From: Candidatus Thorarchaeota archaeon
Lineage (GTDB): Archaea; Asgardarchaeota; Thorarchaeia; Thorarchaeales; Thorarchaeaceae
Assembly: GCA_048882045.1 (NCBI GenBank)
Contig: JBHLRZ010000001.1
Span: 64,001 to 128,000, forward strand
Length of the DNA stretch: 64,000 nucleotides
Direction of reading: 5' to 3'
Both the position numbers and the translations under genes were made by a program. The notes beneath the pieces were generated by a model. That model saw nothing but the letters and a program-made list of their open reading frames with translations. It was not told the origin of the DNA and did no database searches. This document shows positions 41,753-51,192 of the stretch, in pieces. How positions within the stretch are numbered: position 1 is the first letter of the stretch; the number at the start of each line of letters is the position of its first letter.

Positions 41753-42280
41753 ATGTCCGAAGCCAAGAAGACAATCACTTTAGAAAGAAATGAACACCTC
41801 TCACCTCGAATAGGACAGCTCTATTCTATGATGGAGAGAACGCGTGAGAATCTACTAAGGCGTATAGAATCACTCTCAAAGGAAACGATTGACTTCACTC
41901 CAAAACCAAGGCTGATTGAATCTATTGGTACTCTGCTTATCCACATCGCGGCAATAGAATTTAGTTGGATCTTTGAGGATATTGTTGGGAAAGAGATGGA
42001 GTATGAGAAGTGGAAATATGGATTCTCTCTTAGAGAGAATATTGACCAAATAGAGGGAGAAGATGTCGAGTTCTATCTTTCTCGACTCAATGAAGTTCGA
42101 CGAGAGGTGTTCGACTTCCTGAAGACTCTTTCTGACAAAGATCTCGATTCACTAGTTGATGTGGAATCTGAAAAAGTGAGTGTGGAGTGGATCCTCTTTC
42201 ATCTTATTGAGCATGAAGCCATGCATATTGGGCAGGTTTCAGTTCTAATGAGATTGTGGAAAGCTCAAGATACAGCTTGA
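41753..42280 (+). CDS. DinB/DUF664 family protein
   Basis: SIGTLLIHIA, HLIEHEAMHIGQ. Confidence 0.85.
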   Translation: MSEAKKTITLERNEHLSPRIGQLYSMMERTRENLLRRIESLSKETIDFTPKPRLIESIGTLLIHIAAIEFSWIFEDIVGKEMEYEKWKYGFSLRENIDQIEGEDVEFYLSRLNEVRREVFDFLKTLSDKDLDSLVDVESEKVSVEWILFHLIEHEAMHIGQVSVLMRLWKAQDTA

Positions 42281-42470
42281 GATTCAAGAAAAACATTCGA
42301 AAGAGCCTTTGGAAATATAAGCGATCTAGAACAACACTTCTTTCATTATGGAAAATGATGTACAAACATTTGTCGGAATACAATCATGATGCACGTTTTG
42401 GATGAACATTTTCGGAAACCTCATATCAATCTGAATACATACGTTTAGGAGATAATCGCGAGGTGATTAT

Positions 42471-42758
42471 ATGAAATATATCGTATTCTGGGAGTATGAA
42501 CCAAAGGAGATTGACCAAGCTGTCAAGAAACTTGTAGCGTTTAGAGATATGATTAAGAAAGACCCTGACAAATATGCAAAACCCGTTACACCCAATTACA
42601 CTATGAGTGTCGGATTCAAGGGATTTCAACTGTTTGAAGCCACAGACCCTGAACAGCTTGCACGAATGGTGCTTCATTACAGACCAGAAGTGAAGTTTGA
42701 GATTGTGCACATCACTGAAACAAAGAAGACAATGAAAATCTACGATGAGTCAAAATAG
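42471..42758 (+). CDS. DUF3303-like small protein
   Basis: MKYIVFWE...GFQLFEATDPEQL; SD GAGGTGA. Confidence 0.65.
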   Translation: MKYIVFWEYEPKEIDQAVKKLVAFRDMIKKDPDKYAKPVTPNYTMSVGFKGFQLFEATDPEQLARMVLHYRPEVKFEIVHITETKKTMKIYDESK

Positions 42759-42930
42759 TGATTTCTTCTAGATTAGAGTTAATCCAACCGACTGGGCATT
42801 AGAGCCCTTCCTCAGAAACCAGTAGTAACTCAAACAATTAGTTTCTTTTTAACGAGAGCAAGAAAGAATCCTCAAAATCCATCTTCGAATATGATTCCGA
42901 ACCTCTTCAGACTTTGAAATTTAACGGAAA

Positions 42931-42970
42931 TAAAAACAAGAGAGCGAAGGGGGCACTAAGCCCACCTTCG
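42931..42970 (-). terminator. Hairpin plus T-tract downstream of actin
   Basis: Minus strand CGAAGGTGGGC-TTAGT-GCCCCCTTCG followed by CTCTCTTGTTTTT. Confidence 0.65.
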
Positions 42971-42986
42971 TTGAACTATGTATATA

Positions 42987-44126
42987 CTAGATACAGCGGT
43001 GTATCACTTCGGGTCCTACTTCCTCGAACTCCTTCTTGGACACCCACATCTTCTGGAATGTCTTGAGTGAGCCGAGAATGCTTCCACCAATCCAGACAGA
43101 GTACTGCCTCTCGGGTGGAGCGATGATTCGGACCTCGATGTTCTCTGGGACTAGCTCGGTGATCTCCTTGTGGAGTCTCTCCTTGAGTCCTGGGAACATG
43201 GTTGAACCGCCTGAGAGCACAATGTTGGCGTATAGGTCACGTCTCAGGTCAACGTCACAAGCCTTGATTGACTCGACAATGTGGTCATCGAGTGGCATGG
43301 TGTCTAGACCAATGCCGCTTGGGTTGAAGAACAGCTCGGGTGCCTGGAACCTCTCTGCACCAATTGTGATTACCTCACCATCTGGTAACATGTAGGGCTT
43401 GTCAACACCTGCCTTGTCGGCAACTGTCCTTTCCCTCTCGGGATCAAGAGCAACGTAACATAGCTTCTCTTTGATATCTCTGACAATCTCTTTTTCTGCA
43501 CCGCTTACAAATGAGTAGCCAGCCTGCCTGAGCAGTCTGCGCAGATACTCGGTGATGTCCCTACCAGCAAGGTCAATTCTTCGAATGGCGTGGTTGATTG
43601 AAAAGCCCTCATAGATTGGTACTATGTGGGTAACACCGTCGCCTGAGTCAATGACCAGACCAGTGGTCCTTCCGGATGCGTACAATGAGAGTACGGCCTG
43701 CGTGGCAACGTACACTGCTGGTACACCAAAGTTGTCGAACATGACAGATGCCATGCGCTCTCTGTTTTCTCTAGGGTTGAATGGGGCTTCCGTAAGAAGA
43801 ACTGGATTCTCGCTAGGATCTACCTTCAAGTCGTTGTAGAATGTGTAGCTCCAAATCTTCTCGATAGCGTCCCAGTCTTCCACCTTACCATGAGCGATTG
43901 GGTAGACCAGACGGAGTACACCACGAAGGTTGATTGCCTCTTCACCAATGTAGTAGTCACGTGTATAGTGATCCACGTCGGTCATGATTGACTCGTAACG
44001 TGGGTAACCAATCAGTGTGGGCCAAACGCTGCGTGGCTGATCTTCGCCGGCGTAACCGTTCTTGCTCAAACCTGTACCATTGTCGATGACAATGGGTTTT
44101 GCGCCAAGAAACTCGTCTTCAGCCAT
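42987..44126 (-). CDS. Actin (Asgard Lokiactin-type)
   Basis: [73 protein letters not shown]. Confidence 0.98.
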
Positions 44127-44231
44127 TTTCTATCGGTCCTCGTTTGTGATTAGTTCAAAGTCCTTGAGACCTTGTTCTAACATTTTGTTGATGCTTATTC
44201 TATTTAAGGATACGTCCGTCAAACTCGGATT

Positions 44232-44263
44232 TTTTCGAAAAGTATTTGAATTATATATATAAT
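44232..44263. promoter_or_regulatory. Palindromic elements in the actin / wHTH-CARF divergent intergenic region
   Basis: TTTTCGAAAA (44232-44241) and ATTATATATATAAT (44250-44263) are perfect palindromes. Confidence 0.45.
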
Positions 44264-44372
44264 GCCGTGTTTTTGGTCCATTTTTTGAGGTTCTCACGGC
44301 AATACCTTCGATAAGTATAAAAGGTTAATACTCGTAATTACTAGCTAATACATCCGCGGGTCGTGTCAAAGG

Positions 44373-45146
44373 ATGCTCGGAAGGACCATTGAAGATATAG
44401 TTCGTGAAGAAATCGAAACTGTCAGAGCCAGAAGAACGATTCTTGATCACCTGGAAGGTGGACTGAAGACGGGAGCAGAACTCAGGGAAAAGATTGCTAC
44501 TGACATCAAGGCTCAGATGGTACGGGACGGAGCTAGTAAGCGAGAGATTGCAAAGGTAAATGTGACAAGCCCCAAGCTCTATCATAACACAAGACGCTTG
44601 GAAGAACTTGGAATTATAGTCAGCTGGAAACAGTCTCAATACCGCCTTTTCGAACTAGTTCCCCGGGCAGTACTCCCGGTTCGTAGGGCTCTAAAGATAT
44701 CAAAACCGTTAATGTATGTTACTTCGCTAAGCAACCCTGAAGAACAGCGACCCTTTGTGCAGTGGTTGGCAAACAATCCGCATTTCAACCCAAAAAAGCT
44801 CCTTGTCTTTGTGGAAGCTGTCCACTGGACTCGAGGAGTTTCACGTATACTTGACAGGTTCATTCCCGATGATGCTTTTCGAGTATGGACAACAGAGTGG
44901 GTAGAAGTGCCTGATACTGTAACAGGAACTCGAGAAGCACAAGAATATGGAGACCTCCAAGGGACGTGCGATTTCATTGAGGACACTCTTCTAAAACACT
45001 TGTTCGATTACGATTTTGTATTCGACCTAACCCTGGGACCAACGCTTGTGGCACTCGCTATGGCCAAGTTGGCAACAGAATACTCAATTAATGCATTTCA
45101 TGTTACAAACTATGACGCCAGCGATGCGGAGCTTAGTTACTATTGA
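44373..45146 (+). CDS. Winged-HTH + CARF-like Rossmann domain regulator
   Basis: N-terminal wHTH (SPKLYHNTRRLEELGII); C-terminal LMYVTSLS...PKKLLVFV...VFDLTLGPTLVALAM...FHV matches CARF/Csa3 topology. Confidence 0.7.
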   Translation: MLGRTIEDIVREEIETVRARRTILDHLEGGLKTGAELREKIATDIKAQMVRDGASKREIAKVNVTSPKLYHNTRRLEELGIIVSWKQSQYRLFELVPRAVLPVRRALKISKPLMYVTSLSNPEEQRPFVQWLANNPHFNPKKLLVFVEAVHWTRGVSRILDRFIPDDAFRVWTTEWVEVPDTVTGTREAQEYGDLQGTCDFIEDTLLKHLFDYDFVFDLTLGPTLVALAMAKLATEYSINAFHVTNYDASDAELSYY

Positions 45147-45159
45147 TGGATGTGATGAT

Positions 45160-45855
45160 ATGGTAGATGACTCTGATCTCACGCTTTCTTGGGAGCCCAT
45201 TCAGCTCATGAAACGCATGGATTTGTTAGCTGAAACTGTTGAACAAACACGCATCAACACTTCAAAGAATAACACTCGCCTGCTGAACAAGCTAGAAAAG
45301 TGGAAACAAGATATCACTTACATTCAGGATTCCCTAAAGCGTATCGAGAAGATGCTTGTTCCAAAGTTGGAGAAGATTCTGAAAATAGGTTTCCGAAACA
45401 AAGAGCTGTTCCAAGTAGCTATGTTCCAACCAAGCACGAAGAATTTGTTTTTGGAACTCAAAACACAATATAGACGAACTGATTATGACCCACTAGGGTC
45501 TGATAGATTCGCTGAAATGATAAACCTCAGTGAGATGGCCAAGGTTCTTGCACTGGTTGGTGACGCAGTGATATCGTCTGCAGTCCTCCAACACCTCTGG
45601 GAACCTCATCTTGGGGATGCTGGTAAGATAACTCAGAAGAAAGCGAAAATAGTGAGCAACAATCACATGGCGAAGTTGTGCGACAAGTGGAAATTATACA
45701 ATTATCGAATACACTTTGATCCTGAAACCCCCAGTAAATCAGAGATGGATCATGATAAGGGGACTCTGGTGGAAGCTATCTATGGGATCATATACATTGA
45801 GCATGAGTACAAGATGATACACAAACAGGTATTACATCTCATCAATACTCGGTGA
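45160..45855 (+). CDS. RNase III-domain protein without dsRBD (Mini-III-like)
   Basis: LEKILKIGFRNKELFQVAM, LALVGDAV, IVSNNHMA, GTLVEAIYGIIY; start refined to ATG 45160. Confidence 0.85.
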   Translation: MVDDSDLTLSWEPIQLMKRMDLLAETVEQTRINTSKNNTRLLNKLEKWKQDITYIQDSLKRIEKMLVPKLEKILKIGFRNKELFQVAMFQPSTKNLFLELKTQYRRTDYDPLGSDRFAEMINLSEMAKVLALVGDAVISSAVLQHLWEPHLGDAGKITQKKAKIVSNNHMAKLCDKWKLYNYRIHFDPETPSKSEMDHDKGTLVEAIYGIIYIEHEYKMIHKQVLHLINTR

Positions 45856-47365
45856 GATCATACTGGTCTTCTCTATGTTTCGGCAATGCGGATACAGGGA
45901 ATTCTTTCTCAAACCTTCGGCGAACCTTACCAGCGATTTTTGGATCGGAGTAGATTCTTACAGAGGGTATAGTTTCAGTTTGTTGCCAGAGAAGTTGCAT
46001 CAAAGGTCTGCCCTCTTCGGTGTCATCCAACTCAACTAAATCGAATCCAGCATCTCCGCCAACTAGCAAGGGAATCTTTGCTAGTTTCTTCTTTCCGAAG
46101 GATGGGATGACAACATCAACAATCACGCTACCAGGTTCATCTGACAGGTCTTCTTCTATCGCAATCAGCTTATTGATGTCCTTGGAACTCTCGCGAAACT
46201 TCTTCTCGATTTCTTCATTGAATGATGTGAGTTGTCTTGACAAGACAACCTTGAACAGTCTACGATACCGAATTCGAGCTGCATAGTCCCGAACAAAATC
46301 AATCTCAGAGTTTTCGAGCCATCTGAAGAGATCCCCATCAGTCATCCTTGTAAACATTCCAACACATTCGTTCCGCGAAAGATTTTCTTCACGCATTCTG
46401 AAATAAGTGGCCTTGGAAATCACAGCCTCGGCTAGCTTGACTGCATGATGCAAGTAGAGATCACTAAACATCCAATTTCGACTGATGATCAGCGCTTCCA
46501 GTGAATGAATTGCCTTCAGCATGAAAGCACGGACGTACTTTCCTTCTGAGTTCTTTACTACACGATTGGTGAGTAGAACTCTTTCAGCGGGAAAGATTCC
46601 AAGTTGAACACCACTGAAATGAGCGTCGCGAATCAAATAATCAGTCTTATCAATGTCCAGAGGGTGGTCAAGAAACTCTGAAAGCAAGTCCTTGATAGGA
46701 TTGTTTGATTGTCGTTTGAGGATGTTGACGACATCTTTGGGGTCGATGTCATTTTGAGTCAGTGTGTCTTTGAGGCTACTGTTGAGAATGAGAAATGTAC
46801 CAAGATCAAGATGGTCCAACCCAGCCCATGCATGAAGTGCAAATTCAATGGTGTGAGATGTTGGTGGATGTCCCACATCATGGAGTAGGGCTCCAGCACG
46901 GAATAGTTTCTGGTGATAGTCGTCGAGAAGCTTGGAAAGTGGTTCAAAACACGCTTTGTCAAGGTCGTCACAGTAGTTAACGACGCGAATGGATTTCTGT
47001 GCTAAGAAGTTTGTACCAATACAATGCTCAAACCGTGTGTGAGTGGCTCCTGGATAGACAAGATGAGCAGGACCAAGTTGCCGAACATATCTGAGCCTGA
47101 GCATCTCCCATGTAGAGATGACGTCAAGCTCCCATGGTTCAAACAGAATTGCACCATGAACTGGATCTTGTACAGCTTTTTGTCGAGTATGTCTCTCACC
47201 TATTGAGATCATTCGGTTGTGTTTTTCGATTCTCTTCTGAATCTTCATCCAAGTTTCGTCCTTAGATTCCTTGGCTGAAGTAACTTCAGATTCCCTAAGT
47301 CCTGTGAGACGAATCAATCTAATTATTTCTGTATCAAGATCGTTTTTCAAACTCATCAGTCCCAT
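45842..47365 (-). CDS. HD-domain phosphohydrolase, SAMHD1/dNTPase-like
   Basis: DPVHG, RLRYVRQLG, YPGATHTRFEH, LLHDVGH, DKTDYLIRD, LYLHH. Confidence 0.9.
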   Translation of the reverse strand: MGLMSLKNDLDTEIIRLIRLTGLRESEVTSAKESKDETWMKIQKRIEKHNRMISIGERHTRQKAVQDPVHGAILFEPWELDVISTWEMLRLRYVRQLGPAHLVYPGATHTRFEHCIGTNFLAQKSIRVVNYCDDLDKACFEPLSKLLDDYHQKLFRAGALLHDVGHPPTSHTIEFALHAWAGLDHLDLGTFLILNSSLKDTLTQNDIDPKDVVNILKRQSNNPIKDLLSEFLDHPLDIDKTDYLIRDAHFSGVQLGIFPAERVLLTNRVVKNSEGKYVRAFMLKAIHSLEALIISRNWMFSDLYLHHAVKLAEAVISKATYFRMREENLSRNECVGMFTRMTDGDLFRWLENSEIDFVRDYAARIRYRRLFKVVLSRQLTSFNEEIEKKFRESSKDINKLIAIEEDLSDEPGSVIVDVVIPSFGKKKLAKIPLLVGGDAGFDLVELDDTEEGRPLMQLLWQQTETIPSVRIYSDPKIAGKVRRRFEKEFPVSALPKHREDQYDLTEY

Positions 47366-47407
47366 GCCTGGGAAGAAAATAGCCTGTATTTAAGACATGA
47401 CGATGTG

Positions 47408-47953
47408 TCAAGTTAGTCTTCGAGACTTTTTGACACGTTCTCTCGCAGACATGTACTCGAGTGTGTTCTCGGTTTCCATAGCATTGCAGTACTCATTTGG
47501 ATTGCAGTAGCCCCAACCTCTCATCCTGTTGCATGATGTCGACCCAATAGCCTTGTAGAATGGAGCGTCGATCAGGTTCGCCTTGGAAAGGTAGGTTGCA
47601 ACTGTCTTTATGCTCTTCTTGGCAAATGCAAGTCTGATACATGGTGGTGCTCTTTGTACAGTTTCCCATTTTATTAACTTGAATAACTGTGACCAGAGCA
47701 AGCATCTCTTTGCTACATACAGAAAATCGCACTTTGGACAGCATGCATGATGAATAGAGAGTTCACAGAGCTCATCACGTATGGGTTTTGTCAATCCAGA
47801 ACCTCTCAGAAGATGGAACTTGATCTGAGTAAATCGTTCAGGAGTAAATGTACCAAATTCTCTAATGAAAGATTTCAGCTCCTCTGTAACAGTACGGGGA
47901 CTCTCTGTCCACTCCTCCTCACTCAAGGAGGGAGGTCTATTCACATCTTTCAT
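47408..47953 (-). CDS. Stand-alone primase large-subunit C-terminal Fe-S-like domain protein
   Basis: APPCI ... TSCNRMRGWGYCNPNEYC...NTLEY resembles the PriL-CTD pattern PPC...SC..M...C...C...NPL.Y. Confidence 0.6.
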   Translation of the reverse strand: MKDVNRPPSLSEEEWTESPRTVTEELKSFIREFGTFTPERFTQIKFHLLRGSGLTKPIRDELCELSIHHACCPKCDFLYVAKRCLLWSQLFKLIKWETVQRAPPCIRLAFAKKSIKTVATYLSKANLIDAPFYKAIGSTSCNRMRGWGYCNPNEYCNAMETENTLEYMSARERVKKSRRLT

Positions 47954-48086
47954 TGCATCATCTCATTCCGCAAACAATGACTTAAGCTCATCAGTGTTCA
48001 AACACAACGCGTGATTAGTATTCTGATGGAACAAGTTTTAATTAGACCCCAAGGTCAGTAATCAATCACCTGAGAGGACCCTCATT

Positions 48087-49100
48087 ATGACCAAGCTTGA
48101 ACTGCTAGCAAAGGTTCCATTCAGAGAAGTAATCACTTCAATCAATCTAGTTGACATGACAGAAGATGGGAGGGCCAATCTAATAGTTTCCACCCAGAAT
48201 GGAGACATTAGAATCTATGAATATATCGAGGGGAAAACCAAGTTGGAAGAGATAGGGTTGTTGAGCGACCTTCCTCCCCTCTCAGCGATAGGAATTGGAG
48301 ATGTTATTGGTAATGGCGTACCAGACTTCGTTGTTGGAGGCGTTGACAACAATCTCAGGGTCATTTCATTCATAGACAAGAAGCTTGATGTGATTGCTAC
48401 AACACCTCTTGGAAGCTTGCCTACTGCAGTTGGTGTCCTAAATGTTCTATCAGATGATAGAGCAGAAGTCATGGTTGCATCATCAGATGGGACACTAAGA
48501 TGTTATGGATGGTTTGACATTGCATTAGACAAACTGGCTCACAAAGTTCTTGAGCGTCCAATTTTCTCGATGCAGCCTCTGATGAGCAAAGGCCTCCCAT
48601 TCAGTCGTTTCGTCTTTGGGGATGATTCAGGACATCTCTTCGTTTACCAATATGCTGATGATAGACTTCATGAGAGAGCAAAGATCAGTGTAGGTGGAGA
48701 GGTCACTCTAGTGGCCTCTGGAGACATGACTCAAGACGGAAATAGTGAAGTCATGACAGTATCAGATGAGAGAAAACTAACTCTCTTGGGAATAGTCAAA
48801 GGAGCAATGGAGAGGTTTGATTCTGTAAAAGCACCCAAGCATGTTACTTCTCTAAAGATTGGCAAGTTTTGGGAAAACGGAAATGGTCAGATTATTGCCA
48901 GTCACGCAAACTCAACCATTACTGTTTTGAGTCTTGTAGGAAATCGTATCATGGAAGATACATCGCTCAAGACAAAAGGAAAGTCAGTAGAGTCTCACAT
49001 CAGCCTTGGAGACATTGTAGGTGATTCCAAGTATGAGATTGTTCAGACAGTCGGAACCGATCTATTTCTCATACGAGTTGTAGAAAAGGATGTGTCTTAG
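48087..49100 (+). CDS. Cytoplasmic FG-GAP-like beta-propeller (BBS2/ITFG2-like)
   Basis: About seven repeats, e.g. DMTEDGRANLIV, GDVIGNGVPDFVVG, GDMTQDGNSEVM, GDIVGDSKYEIV; no signal peptide. Confidence 0.75.
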   Translation: MTKLELLAKVPFREVITSINLVDMTEDGRANLIVSTQNGDIRIYEYIEGKTKLEEIGLLSDLPPLSAIGIGDVIGNGVPDFVVGGVDNNLRVISFIDKKLDVIATTPLGSLPTAVGVLNVLSDDRAEVMVASSDGTLRCYGWFDIALDKLAHKVLERPIFSMQPLMSKGLPFSRFVFGDDSGHLFVYQYADDRLHERAKISVGGEVTLVASGDMTQDGNSEVMTVSDERKLTLLGIVKGAMERFDSVKAPKHVTSLKIGKFWENGNGQIIASHANSTITVLSLVGNRIMEDTSLKTKGKSVESHISLGDIVGDSKYEIVQTVGTDLFLIRVVEKDVS

Positions 49101-49516
49101 GTTAGGTTGGGCATGAACACTTCATTTGGTTGTAAGACCTTGATTGTCTTCACACTAGTGTTTGCCTTAATTTTCGGCACAACATTGTCCTCGACCCAAT
49201 TTTTGACGTTTAAGCGAGCGTCATTGATAGTTTCACCCTCAGCATTCATGTCAAATCTGATGAAGAGATGATAGGGTTCTCTCTCTGTGAAGTCCTTCTT
49301 TATCATGGCCCAGAAAGCCTTAGATCCTGCTGGAACATCTATTCTTCCGAGAATCTCAGACCACGATTTGCCTTCTATTCGTTTTGAAACAATAGCGAGG
49401 TCTTTCAATTCAGGTAATTCCTTTAGTGCTGCTAGCACTTTGTCCCCCGTTTTCTTCGTGTCAGAAATATCGTCGAACTCTGCAATGAGATAGTGATCAG
49501 CTCGGAACTTAGCCAT
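49097..49516 (-). CDS. Hypothetical protein
   Basis: 139-aa ORF with SD GGAG; no recognised motif. Confidence 0.7.
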   Translation of the reverse strand: MAKFRADHYLIAEFDDISDTKKTGDKVLAALKELPELKDLAIVSKRIEGKSWSEILGRIDVPAGSKAFWAMIKKDFTEREPYHLFIRFDMNAEGETINDARLNVKNWVEDNVVPKIKANTSVKTIKVLQPNEVFMPNLT

Positions 49517-49572
49517 GTGTTCTTTACTCCATCCTGTGAATCGTAGGCGGCCTGATTGCTTTGACTCTTAAA

Positions 49573-50178
49573 TCATTCCGTTTGCCTCTTGCTGAGCTGA
49601 GCACTGTAGTGATAGAATCTATAGCCAGCTGTTAGCAAACCCATGAGAGTAACAATAATCAGTCCCCAGAGAAGCATGTCGATAACTGAGAAGATCACCA
49701 GGGTGAACAACCTCTCGGATCGACCTCCAACACCGATATCAAGGTCTAAAACACCGAGACTTGTGGCACGTGCTCTTGTATAGCTTGTCAACAGCCAACC
49801 AGTAATTGCTACTAGAACCCATAGAGAGACAGGAAGCCCGAGAAATGTTATGGTGAGATATTCGACAGCTAATGACCCTAAAATCAAACCCTCGGAGATT
49901 TTGTCAATCACAGAGTCTATGAATGCTCCAGAATCGGAAGCAATGTTTAGTTCTCTAGCGACAGTCCCATCAACACCATCAAACAGACCTGAGAGAAATA
50001 CAAGAATACCAAAGAGAAGAGCAGACCCGGTCATATTGAGTCCGATTGCAGCCAAGAAAGCTAATAGCAGACTGACGTAAGTGATCGTGTCAGGACGAAC
50101 GCCTCTACTTGCTAGGGGTTTAGCTATTGCTACTACCAGTCCCTTGAAGATTCGTCTTACTCTGAACCTACTTGGCAT
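49573..50178 (-). CDS. CDP-alcohol phosphatidyltransferase (archaetidylinositol-phosphate synthase-like)
   Basis: DGVDGTVAR..GAFIDSVIDK, SYTRARA, RSER. Confidence 0.9.
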   Translation of the reverse strand: MPSRFRVRRIFKGLVVAIAKPLASRGVRPDTITYVSLLLAFLAAIGLNMTGSALLFGILVFLSGLFDGVDGTVARELNIASDSGAFIDSVIDKISEGLILGSLAVEYLTITFLGLPVSLWVLVAITGWLLTSYTRARATSLGVLDLDIGVGGRSERLFTLVIFSVIDMLLWGLIIVTLMGLLTAGYRFYHYSAQLSKRQTE

Positions 50179-50184
50179 CTTTCA

Positions 50185-51192
50185 TCAATCCATATAGTAA
50201 TGTATTGATTTGTACACTATTGCCCTTTGTATTCGACTCTGCGCTTGTATCGTTGATTCACCGAGAACAACCGAATCCGAGATGATACAGCGATTCAAGA
50301 GTCTACTATTTGAGTCTAAAGATACATTGGGCCCAATTCTGCACCCCTCATCAACAACACAACCAGGAGATATCAGGACAGGTCCGACAATCTCGGTCCC
50401 TTTATGAAGTGAGATGTTTGATCTCAAAGAGAGGGTATTTCCGACTTCAACAATATCACCGGGCGGTACAAAGATATGATCAGATTCCGTCATTTCTCCC
50501 CTCTCTAGCAATAACCTATCAGCTTTTAGAAGATCAGAAAGTGTGTCTATATCAAGACTTGGACTCCCCACCGGATATGCCATCAGACTACGATCTTCAT
50601 GTGCCCATTCATTCAGGACTGAAACTAATCTTGTTTCGCCAGCGTCAAGGGCCTTCTTACATTCCTTTTTGATTGATGAGTGGCCCATCAACACCATTGC
50701 ACTTTGACTCATAATATCAGTGACGACGACTCCATCTCCTAGTCCTGTTATTAGACCATTTCTGATTGAAACAGGCGTACCATAGTTAGATGTATCATCA
50801 ACTGCAAGCATCATGATATTAGAACGAGTCTGTTCATTGTAACGAGAAACCATTCCTGAGAGAATTGAGGGTTCTATCATTATGTCTACGGGTATAAGAA
50901 GAAAGTCATCGTTGAAGGATTCTGTTGCAGTCACAAAGGTTTGAAGAGGACCAATTTCATAGTCTGTCACTCGGACAACTGATACTCCTTTCTCGGATGA
51001 TAGATGATCTTCAATTTGAGAGCCCTTCCAACCAACTGCAACAACAATCTTGCTACTTCCTGATTCTGAAAGTCTTTTTATTGCCCAATCCACAAGGGTC
51101 TTGCCGCCCACCTTTAGGAGTGCTTTTGGTATGTCGTCTGTAAGCGGACGCATTCTCTCGCCCAGACCAGCTGCAAGAATCACTCCGTGGAT
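50185..51192 (-). CDS. NDP-sugar nucleotidyltransferase with left-handed beta-helix
   Basis: ILAAGLGERMRPLTDDIPKAL, DIDT, hexapeptide repeats; start is either ATC 51192 (see findings) or GTG 51183. Confidence 0.85.
   Translation of the reverse strand: MHGVILAAGLGERMRPLTDDIPKALLKVGGKTLVDWAIKRLSESGSSKIVVAVGWKGSQIEDHLSSEKGVSVVRVTDYEIGPLQTFVTATESFNDDFLLIPVDIMIEPSILSGMVSRYNEQTRSNIMMLAVDDTSNYGTPVSIRNGLITGLGDGVVVTDIMSQSAMVLMGHSSIKKECKKALDAGETRLVSVLNEWAHEDRSLMAYPVGSPSLDIDTLSDLLKADRLLLERGEMTESDHIFVPPGDIVEVGNTLSLRSNISLHKGTEIVGPVLISPGCVVDEGCRIGPNVSLDSNSRLLNRCIISDSVVLGESTIQAQSRIQRAIVYKSIHYYMD

Follow-up and report, generated by a model that had tools for sequence, protein, structure and literature searches.

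CARF domains are defined as six-stranded Rossmann-like folds whose strands 5 and 6 make up a beta-hairpin and whose strand 1 ends in a polar serine or threonine (PMC4012209). Csa3, a factor of type I and type III CRISPR loci in which a CARF domain precedes a winged helix-turn-helix (wHTH) domain (e.g. Saccharolobus Csa3a; PDB 2wte, 6w11, 6wxq), is described in two reports as a dimeric regulator of neighbouring genes that binds cyclic tetra-adenylate (cA4) (PMC8844856, PMC8699464). RtcR, which has the architecture CARF-AAA+-HTH (PMC4012209), activates the rtcBA RNA repair operon. The subject of this analysis is a gene encoding a related putative regulator, termed protein X, that lies head-to-head with a eukaryote-like actin gene in a Candidatus Thorarchaeota archaeon (assembly GCA_048882045.1, contig JBHLRZ010000001.1, forward-strand positions 64,001 to 128,000; this whole stretch of 64,000 nucleotides is referred to as the window). 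With rather more confidence than doubt, protein X is proposed to be a CRISPR-derived CARF transcription factor that has been taken over to control actin.

Like Csa3, protein X combines a CARF domain with a winged helix. It differs in that the wHTH domain comes first, the protein belongs to the CARF_m5 family, the neighbour is an actin gene rather than cas genes, no CRISPR or Cas10 component was found in the genome, and the CARF motif in Thorarchaeia lacks its Lys/Arg. The Csa3_N profile (PF22662) did not match X; only two distant relatives gave matches, and these stayed below threshold (13-17 bits against a cut-off of 27). RtcR offers a precedent for a CARF-domain regulator of a non-CRISPR operon. 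It differs from X in being a bacterial protein with a sigma54-type AAA+ module and a divergent CARF domain, and its homology to X is taken to go no further than the CARF fold. Nearest are the CARF_m5 paralogues of Asgard type III loci, which share the family, the architecture and the wHTH-CARF order of X, but which adjoin Cas10, Cmr3, RAMP or Cas1 genes, keep the full motif, are patchily distributed and form a separate clade.

In a literature search, which did not extend to the treatment of CARF_m5 in the CARF census, no report came up that connects the actin gene of an Asgard archaeon with a neighbour of the CARF or winged-helix type. To our knowledge, nothing is known about the control of eukaryote-like actin in Asgard archaea.

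Predicted fold and family of protein X

Protein X is predicted to be composed of an N-terminal winged helix of the ArsR/PadR/MarR type and a C-terminal CARF domain. A first model, made with sequences from Thorarchaeia only, had a predicted local distance difference test (pLDDT) score of 68.6, and its top 49 Foldseek matches in the PDB were all CARF proteins. A second model, made with AlphaFold2 (AF2) and a family-wide alignment of 53 sequences, reached a pLDDT of 87.8 and a predicted template modelling (pTM) score of 0.83; CARF proteins occupied ranks 1-39 of its Foldseek PDB matches throughout. Exhaustive comparison of residues 112-257 with VIA-align gave 1xmx (VC1899) at Z 14.1, Cdn1 at 14.0, Csm6 at 13.2, Can2 at 12.9, Card1 at 12.8 and Csa3 at 12.3, and Z values of 12-14 to eight solved CARF domains extend across residues 110-257. 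For residues 1-111 the matches were RosR (Z 11.9), TubR (11.3), HlyU (11.1) and CzrA (10.7), and orthologues of X show weak PadR and HTH_20 matches.

The PADLOC profile CARF_m5 (PDLC01987) matches X with an E value of 6.6e-20 and 70 bits, aligning residues 14-246 with positions 6-188 of the 195-position profile. It matches the Frey orthologue at 2.8e-51. X is the sole CARF_m5 match in the genome of the window and is present in a single copy. The CARF fold is thus supported by structure prediction with fold search and by an independent profile match. An earlier note on this DNA, made from the sequence alone, had proposed a wHTH domain followed by a CARF domain, and this architecture is borne out by the model, the fold search and the profile. 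The note had also presented the reversed domain order as unusual. This part does not hold as a novelty, as the family is already catalogued as CARF_m5 and its CRISPR-linked paralogues have the same order.

The strands of the model run through residues 113-119, 142-148, 173-179 and 214-218, with a terminal pair at 240-244 and 254-256. This modelled topology, a Rossmann-like sheet ending in a beta-hairpin, agrees with the published definition. Strand 1 ends in Y115-V-T117-S118-L-S120, which supplies the expected polar serine or threonine, with T117 and S118 conserved to 90% or more in Thorarchaeia. Residues invariant across the whole X family are L24, G34 and N72 in the wHTH domain and R104 in the linker; none lies in the CARF domain. 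Protein X itself has no Pfam or NCBIfam family, and phmmer against PDB sequences returned nothing. A DUF6309 match was below threshold and was disregarded.

Association with the actin gene in Asgard archaea

The actin gene of the window encodes a eukaryote-like Asgard actin (Table 1) that is 97-98% identical to those of other Thorarchaeia genera and 64-79% identical to actins adjoining X orthologues in other Asgard families. A word-indexed search with X returned proteins of Thorarchaeia only, at 61-92% identity. A search with a profile, run against 1.84 billion representatives, brought up relatives of about 25% identity, and these carry the canonical motif D-[VL]-T-x-G-x-[RK]. On the first relative's contig that was examined (Frey/Jord), X stands head-to-head with an actin gene and there is no RNase III gene. 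Among the members of the X family, source labels name Thor, Hermod, Baldr, Frey/Jord and 'Hod'.

When 400 Asgard genomes were scanned with a profile, strong orthologues of X, defined by E < 1e-57, fell into families f1-f6, f14-f19, f28 and f29. The genes for X and actin are head-to-head in ten of these (f1, f2, f3, f4, f5, f6, f14, f16, f28 and f29). In f17 they are in tandem on the same strand, X then actin, and in f15, f18 and f19 they are not adjacent. The gene flanks on either side are reshuffled between families, while the head-to-head arrangement is retained in the ten. Adjacency to actin is thus not peculiar to this genome, and the idea of a relation between X and actin, put forward in the earlier note, gains support from it. 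In one lineage of Thorarchaeia a UbiA gene is inserted between the two.

Other features of the actin locus were noticed. Leucine-rich-repeat (LRR) proteins adjoin actin in f22, f11 and one lineage of Thorarchaeia (L063:3069-4100, L064:2-910 and L003:1469-2884), and an LRR protein may be a second recurrent actin neighbour. A 221-amino-acid gene upstream of actin in f13 (L066) was considered as a candidate X; it encodes a metallo-beta-lactamase without similarity to X. The actin frame appears split or frameshifted in two records, a Hermod genome and a Logan contig (L055:2934-4245 and L011:3288-4439), which may represent an assembly error or an interrupted gene.

Conserved elements in the actin-X spacer

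The 246 bp between the divergent genes contain several elements that are conserved among 12 aligned spacers of Thorarchaeia; the TATA and B recognition element (BRE) positions were assigned by eye from the consensus (Table 1). A 12-nt direct repeat, TTCGAWAAGTAT, is among them. Its two copies are 73 nt apart and are conserved across Thorarchaeia. The first is a candidate operator for X on actin, and the second, which overlaps the TATA-like box of X, is a candidate autoregulatory site. There are five exact copies of the 12-mer in the 3.6-Mb genome, two in the spacer and three inside unrelated coding genes; the reversed control sequence has three. The three outlying copies were considered as a regulon and rejected; they lie inside thioredoxin, GNAT and methyltransferase coding sequences, their number matches the control count, and they were taken as chance.

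Outside Thorarchaeia, the actin-X spacers of f6, f16, f28 and f29 hold an exact 13-mer, GATATCRTCYATA, in one orientation throughout and with an inverted partner in three of the four. The spacer copy is the only occurrence of the 13-mer genome-wide in G117, G007 and G298, which are complete or near-complete genomes. In one f29 genome (G304) the spacer copy has one mismatch and a single exact copy lies elsewhere (G304:C1:256768-256780), which could be chance or a second target site.

The 13-mer is located 25-29 nt from the TATA-like box of actin, and the 12-mer of Thorarchaeia 24 nt from it. The distance of the element to the ATG of X ranges from 35 to 391 nt over all five lineages. It is mainly this fixed register with the actin TATA-like box that would place actin, and not just X, under the control of the element. 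The two motifs are unlike in sequence. This fits the differing residues at the start of the recognition helix, which read T-S-P-K-L-Y-H-N-T in Thorarchaeia and S-D-A-x-L-Y-F-N-L elsewhere.

The predicted 5′ end of the actin mRNA carries a conserved hairpin. RNAalifold gave nine pairs, five of them with compensatory changes, and 95% of cells paired. None of 500 shuffles reached the covariation score and slid controls were at most 46% paired. The hairpin could serve as an mRNA stabiliser or a nuclease target. Some lineages of Thorarchaeia display a second inserted hairpin-like segment downstream of it. Rfam gave no match on positions 42000-48000. Just upstream of the actin ATG, the invariant block GAGGACCG is likely the actin ribosome-binding site, and on the other side of the spacer the near-palindromic block ATTACTAGnTAATA is predicted to be the transcription start or leader of X.

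Relation to CRISPR-linked paralogues

The earlier note had regarded the locus as independent of CRISPR. This stands for the present genome (93.4% complete), where searches for Csm1, Cmr2, the Cas10 palm domain, Cas1 and SMODS came back empty; a CRISPR-like array is likewise missing from the window. More widely, any Cas10-like match was found in 9 of 85 Thorarchaeia genomes, compared with 79 of 85 for X.

The weaker matches of the profile scan are paralogues of X. These are proteins of about 215 amino acids with the same wHTH-CARF order and the full motif. The CRISPR-linked paralogues match PADLOC CARF_m5 at 5.9e-44, align to the X profile with an hhalign probability of 99.3% and reach CARF_Card1 at or near the Pfam cut-off. 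They adjoin, or share a contig with, the Cas10, Cmr3, RAMP and Cas1 genes (e.g. L079:5145-5789 and L080:9544-10197). In a maximum-likelihood tree in which several rows are on long branches, 31 orthologue rows and 18 paralogue rows are split by one branch with support of 98 in the SH-like approximate likelihood ratio test (SH-aLRT). On the simplest reading, the actin locus recruited a type III-associated wHTH-CARF protein on a single occasion, and the protein was then passed on vertically, with adjacency lost three times later on.

Predicted dimer and CARF motif

Structure prediction of an X homodimer gave an ipSAE score of 0.70, compared with 0.00 for the best control. The runs share at least 91% of contacts and have pLDDT values of at least 84. 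That mark was attained by 20 of 30 proteins that were solved as two copies of one chain, as against 1 of 23 that were solved as single chains. The predicted interface comprises residues 189-197, 219-235 and 242-257 and runs through the CARF motif and helix 4, with contact 224:224 on the axis. The prediction supports self-binding of X, short of demonstrating it, and the pass may reflect a likeness to solved CARF dimers.

The motif that follows strand 4 reads D218-L-T-L-G-P-T224 in the window, as the earlier note had it. The aspartate and threonine are kept and the Lys/Arg is missing. All Thorarchaeia X sequences have T, S, P or Q at the basic position, and the Lys/Arg is also lost in f2 and f3. 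Orthologues in f4-f6, f14-f19, f28 and f29 keep the full D-[VL]-[TS]-x-G-x-[RK], which matches the published CARF signature [DN]-x-[ST]-x-x-x-[RK] after strand 4 (PMC4012209). As the basic residue is there termed "often" associated, its loss does not exclude membership of the CARF superfamily.

The CARF surface of the Thorarchaeia proteins is invariant or nearly so at T117, S118, E148, W152, R154, G155, R158, R162, D218, T220 and P223. An Arg-rich insert in the CARF domain is specific to Thorarchaeia and could replace the lost Lys/Arg. The ligand of the Thorarchaeia protein may differ from that of the other families or may have been lost.

The RNase III gene and other neighbours

In Thorarchaeia, X is followed by a gene with an RNase III domain, present beside X in 80 of 85 genomes. 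In all of the more than 60 genomes compared by eye, the two genes are on one strand, with the RNase III gene 20-70 nt downstream of X, and the gap is short or overlapping in all loci of Thorarchaeia examined. The operon described in the earlier note is supported as a tight one, and the two genes are probably co-transcribed in Thorarchaeia. The note had treated X and the RNase III gene as the unit, and here the comparison points elsewhere. The RNase III gene is missing from every non-Thorarchaeia family with an X orthologue, and as it is an add-on of Thorarchaeia only, the ancient unit is actin plus X. The gene boundaries that the note had proposed all hold, as judged from the listing of open reading frames and from the sequence.

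The RNase III protein matches PF00636 over residues 129-214 with 51.4 bits (cut-off 27). It has one catalytic domain with G-D-A and E-A-x-x-G motifs and, like Mini-III, no domain for binding double-stranded RNA (dsRBD). It is unlike other members of the RNase III family in its N-terminal extension of about 67 amino acids, an insert before the signature, and Ala/Thr at two catalytic positions. The metal ligands of the Aquifex enzyme are E40, D44, D107 and E110. Two of these four carboxylates are kept as the invariant D135 and E205 (equivalent to D44 and E110), and the positions of E40 and D107 are A131 and T202 (serine in one orthologue).

The label of Mini-RNase III given in the earlier note was rejected. 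Mini-III is a bare catalytic domain of about 140 amino acids. The present protein has 231, and its family profile reaches Mini-III (4oun) only at E 0.14 over 55 residues, far behind Drosha RIIIDa (6.6e-11) and bacterial RNase III 3o2r (1.1e-6). In terms of sequence comparison, the protein is 'mini' in architecture only and is nearer to Drosha and class-1 RNase III. Full-length homologues without a dsRBD (L071-L078, e.g. G135:C1:2549991-2550653), of about 228 amino acids with the same extension and 30-43% identity, occur sporadically in f8, f10, f11, f21 and f22. Their neighbours are varied, with no shared context. The homologues are distinct from the dsRBD-bearing Rnc that adjoins Asgard Argonautes (bioRxiv 10.1101/2023.12.14.571608).

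Convergent with the RNase III gene is a gene for a protein with HD and HD_assoc_2 domains and weak dGTPase-like matches. A 181-amino-acid gene without a known family and an FG-GAP-like propeller (Pfam) lie beyond it. The HD gene was found in loci of Thorarchaeia only, and the 181-amino-acid gene is likewise an addition of Thorarchaeia. The block of HD gene, 181-amino-acid gene and FG-GAP/BBS-like propeller (45842-49100) is kept throughout Thorarchaeia, at 45-75% identity between genera. In f2 the propeller directly follows X (L060), which suggests that the RNase III, HD and 181-amino-acid genes were inserted between X and the propeller in Thorarchaeia.

A gene for a CDP-alcohol phosphatidyltransferase and an NTP-transferase gene resembling sugar-1-phosphate nucleotidylyltransferases, often with a 139-amino-acid gene, travel with X in many Asgard families. 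The gap between X and this pair is 6 nt in f6; the pair is more distant in f1 and 4.4 kb away in Thorarchaeia. The CDP-alcohol transferase resembles archaetidylinositol-phosphate synthase at 125 bits, below the cut-off of 180. An inositol-lipid-type pathway adjoining actin and its putative regulator is intriguing, and one may speculate that the pair is the source of a candidate ligand for X.

Table 1. Positions of the genes, domains and sequence elements discussed in the text (window coordinates unless a locus label is given)
Feature	Position	Strand	Details
Actin gene	42987-44126	-	379 aa; Pfam Actin, 440 bits, E 7.8e-132
Actin-X spacer	44127-44372		246 bp
Block GAGGACCG (actin strand)	44134-44142	-	invariant in 12 Thorarchaeia spacers
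Actin-leader hairpin	44151-44179	-	RNAalifold
Actin TATA-like box CTATTTAAGG and block TACGTCCG	44200-44218	-	box written as + strand, 44200-44209; block at BRE position, 44211-44218; conserved in 12 of 12 Thorarchaeia spacers
TTCGAWAAGTAT, copy 1	44234-44245	+	24 nt from actin TATA-like box
TTCGAWAAGTAT, copy 2, and X TATA-like box TATAAAAGG	44307-44324	+	copy 2, 44307-44318; box, 44316-44324
Near-palindromic block ATTACTAGnTAATA	44337-44351	+	20-35 nt before X ATG; nearly invariant in 12 Thorarchaeia spacers; palindromes I4 and I5 overlap
Protein X gene	44373-45146	+	257 aa
Predicted wHTH domain of X	44373-44705	+	residues 1-111; VIA-align
Predicted CARF domain of X (CARF_m5)	44706-45146	+	residues 112-257; VIA-align, Foldseek, PADLOC
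CARF motif of X	45024-45044	+	D218-T224
Shine-Dalgarno-like GGATGTGATG	45148-45157	+	in the 13-nt X-RNase III gap; sequence
RNase III-domain gene	45160-45855	+	231 aa; ATG at 45160, 13 nt beyond X stop
RNase III region from residue 68	45361-45852	+
HD + HD_assoc_2 gene	45842-47365	-	507 aa; Pfam; 14-nt overlap with RNase III gene
Transferase and nucleotidylyltransferase genes	49097-51183	-	other loci: L061:2441-3992; L056-L058; L044-L047; L054-L055; L010

Proposed mechanism and alternatives

Protein X would act as a one-component CARF_m5 transcription factor. The N-terminal winged helix would bind DNA, and the C-terminal CARF domain would form the dimer and, in most of the family, a pocket for a nucleotide-type ligand on the two-fold axis. 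Its conserved role in Asgard archaea would be the control of the divergent actin gene and probably of its own promoter too. A dimer would occupy the site TTCGAAAAGTAT (44234-44245), which is upstream of the actin TATA-like box at a position typical of archaeal activators; the second copy, over the TATA-like box of X, has a position typical of autorepression. Occupancy of the CARF dimer by ligand would shift how the two winged helices are arranged, and actin output would be set in this way. The RNase III without a dsRBD was added downstream in Thorarchaeia and would share a transcript with X.

Several observations weigh against this proposal. The linkage to actin is absent in the X-bearing families f15, f18 and f19, and X is absent or represented only by paralogues (weak matches) in the large families f8, f11, f13, f21 and f22. 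There, LRR, DUF285 and metallo-beta-lactamase proteins are the upstream neighbours of actin, so that actin can evidently run without X. The 12-mer of Thorarchaeia and the 13-mer of the other families could not be related to each other, and it is possible that the 12-mer is no operator but the BRE-TATA core of two promoters of X in tandem. With the canonical Lys/Arg missing from the Thorarchaeia clade as well as from f2 and f3, ligand gating is least certain in this very window. Finally, X lies tail-to-tail with the transferase pair in f4, f6, f14, f16, f18 and f19, and in the last two the link is retained despite non-adjacent actin. Gene order passed down from an ancestor may thus account for part of the actin-X synteny; alternatively, X may act on further targets.

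One alternative retains the most weight, although it is considered unlikely. X would regulate only itself and the downstream genes (RNase III in Thorarchaeia) or the transferase pair, and not actin. The adjacency would be inherited order, and the ligand would be a nucleotide-activated product of the inositol-phospholipid-like pathway of that pair. The persistence of the transferase link and the resemblance to archaetidylinositol-phosphate synthase are in keeping with this, and in f29 the 13-mer overlaps the TATA-like box of X itself, 35 nt from its ATG. However, X and the convergent transferase pair have no control region in common. The element keeps its register with the actin TATA-like box (24-29 nt) while its distance to X varies tenfold, and the head-to-head pairing persists in ten families whose flanks are reshuffled on both sides.

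Control of actin by X is compatible with a CARF domain that is a dimerisation scaffold only and senses no ligand, at least in Thorarchaeia. We regard this as doubtful to a greater degree. It would account for the replaced or lost basic residue, for the failure to find a cyclic oligoadenylate synthase in the genome, and for the restriction of family-wide invariant residues to the wHTH domain and linker. The strong conservation of the CARF surface within Thorarchaeia does not suit a mere scaffold, the Arg-rich insert could substitute for the Lys/Arg, and the complete CARF signature persists in most other families.

A stand-alone stress or antiviral module had been raised in the earlier note. On a nucleotide alarm signal, the CARF sensor would here control or activate the RNase III and possibly also the HD protein as a SAMHD1-like hydrolase. 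X is indeed most closely related to CARF proteins linked to type III CRISPR, its operon with RNase III is tight in 80 of 85 genomes of Thorarchaeia, and the HD protein has its weak dGTPase-like matches. The proposal is nevertheless a poor fit to a single-copy gene found in 79 of those 85 genomes. The locus is near-universal in Thorarchaeia, vertically inherited and fixed in position, unlike patchy defence islands; no signal synthase was found in the genome; and X bears a DNA-binding domain, not an effector domain. Neither RNase III nor the HD gene occurs in any non-Thorarchaeia family that bears X. The RNase III has no PADLOC match, and its homologues elsewhere have unrelated neighbours. An antiviral role is therefore held to be highly improbable.

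The order of a cis-site, an actin-like gene and a gene for a DNA-binding protein recalls parC-parM-parR. A ParR/TubR-like adaptor that binds iterated sites beside the actin gene and couples DNA to actin filaments, as in segregation systems, in place of or in addition to a role as transcription factor, would be consistent with the TubR match of the N-terminal domain and with a 9-nt unit that recurs, iterated or inverted, around the 13-mer in the f6, f16 and f28 spacers, but it is scarcely credible, as TubR is one of many wHTH matches at similar Z, the partner is a eukaryote-like cytoskeletal actin and not of ParM type, and no precedent is known for a CARF domain in such adaptors.

Implications

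A more far-reaching version of the proposal that X controls actin can be outlined tentatively, and it is unlikely to hold in all its parts. A sensor domain that arose in type III CRISPR signalling would have been taken over early in Asgard evolution as a ligand-controlled switch for actin, with a product of the inositol-phospholipid-like enzymes as one candidate signal. A nucleotide-type signal inside the cell would then govern how strongly the cytoskeleton is expressed in those archaea that are the nearest kin of eukaryotes. In Thorarchaeia, coupling of this switch to a dsRNA nuclease would be added, and the nuclease could act on the hairpin of the actin leader. Of interest in its own right is the occurrence of an RNase III without a dsRBD, and with Drosha-like sequence affinity, in a fixed operon of one Asgard class.

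The locus represents a concrete, testable candidate, with a small soluble protein, a 12-13-nt motif whose spacing to the actin promoter is fixed, and a sensor domain for which ligands can be screened. If the proposal is true, the locus would stand beside RtcR as a clear example of an ancillary CRISPR sensor family put to new use in core cell biology.

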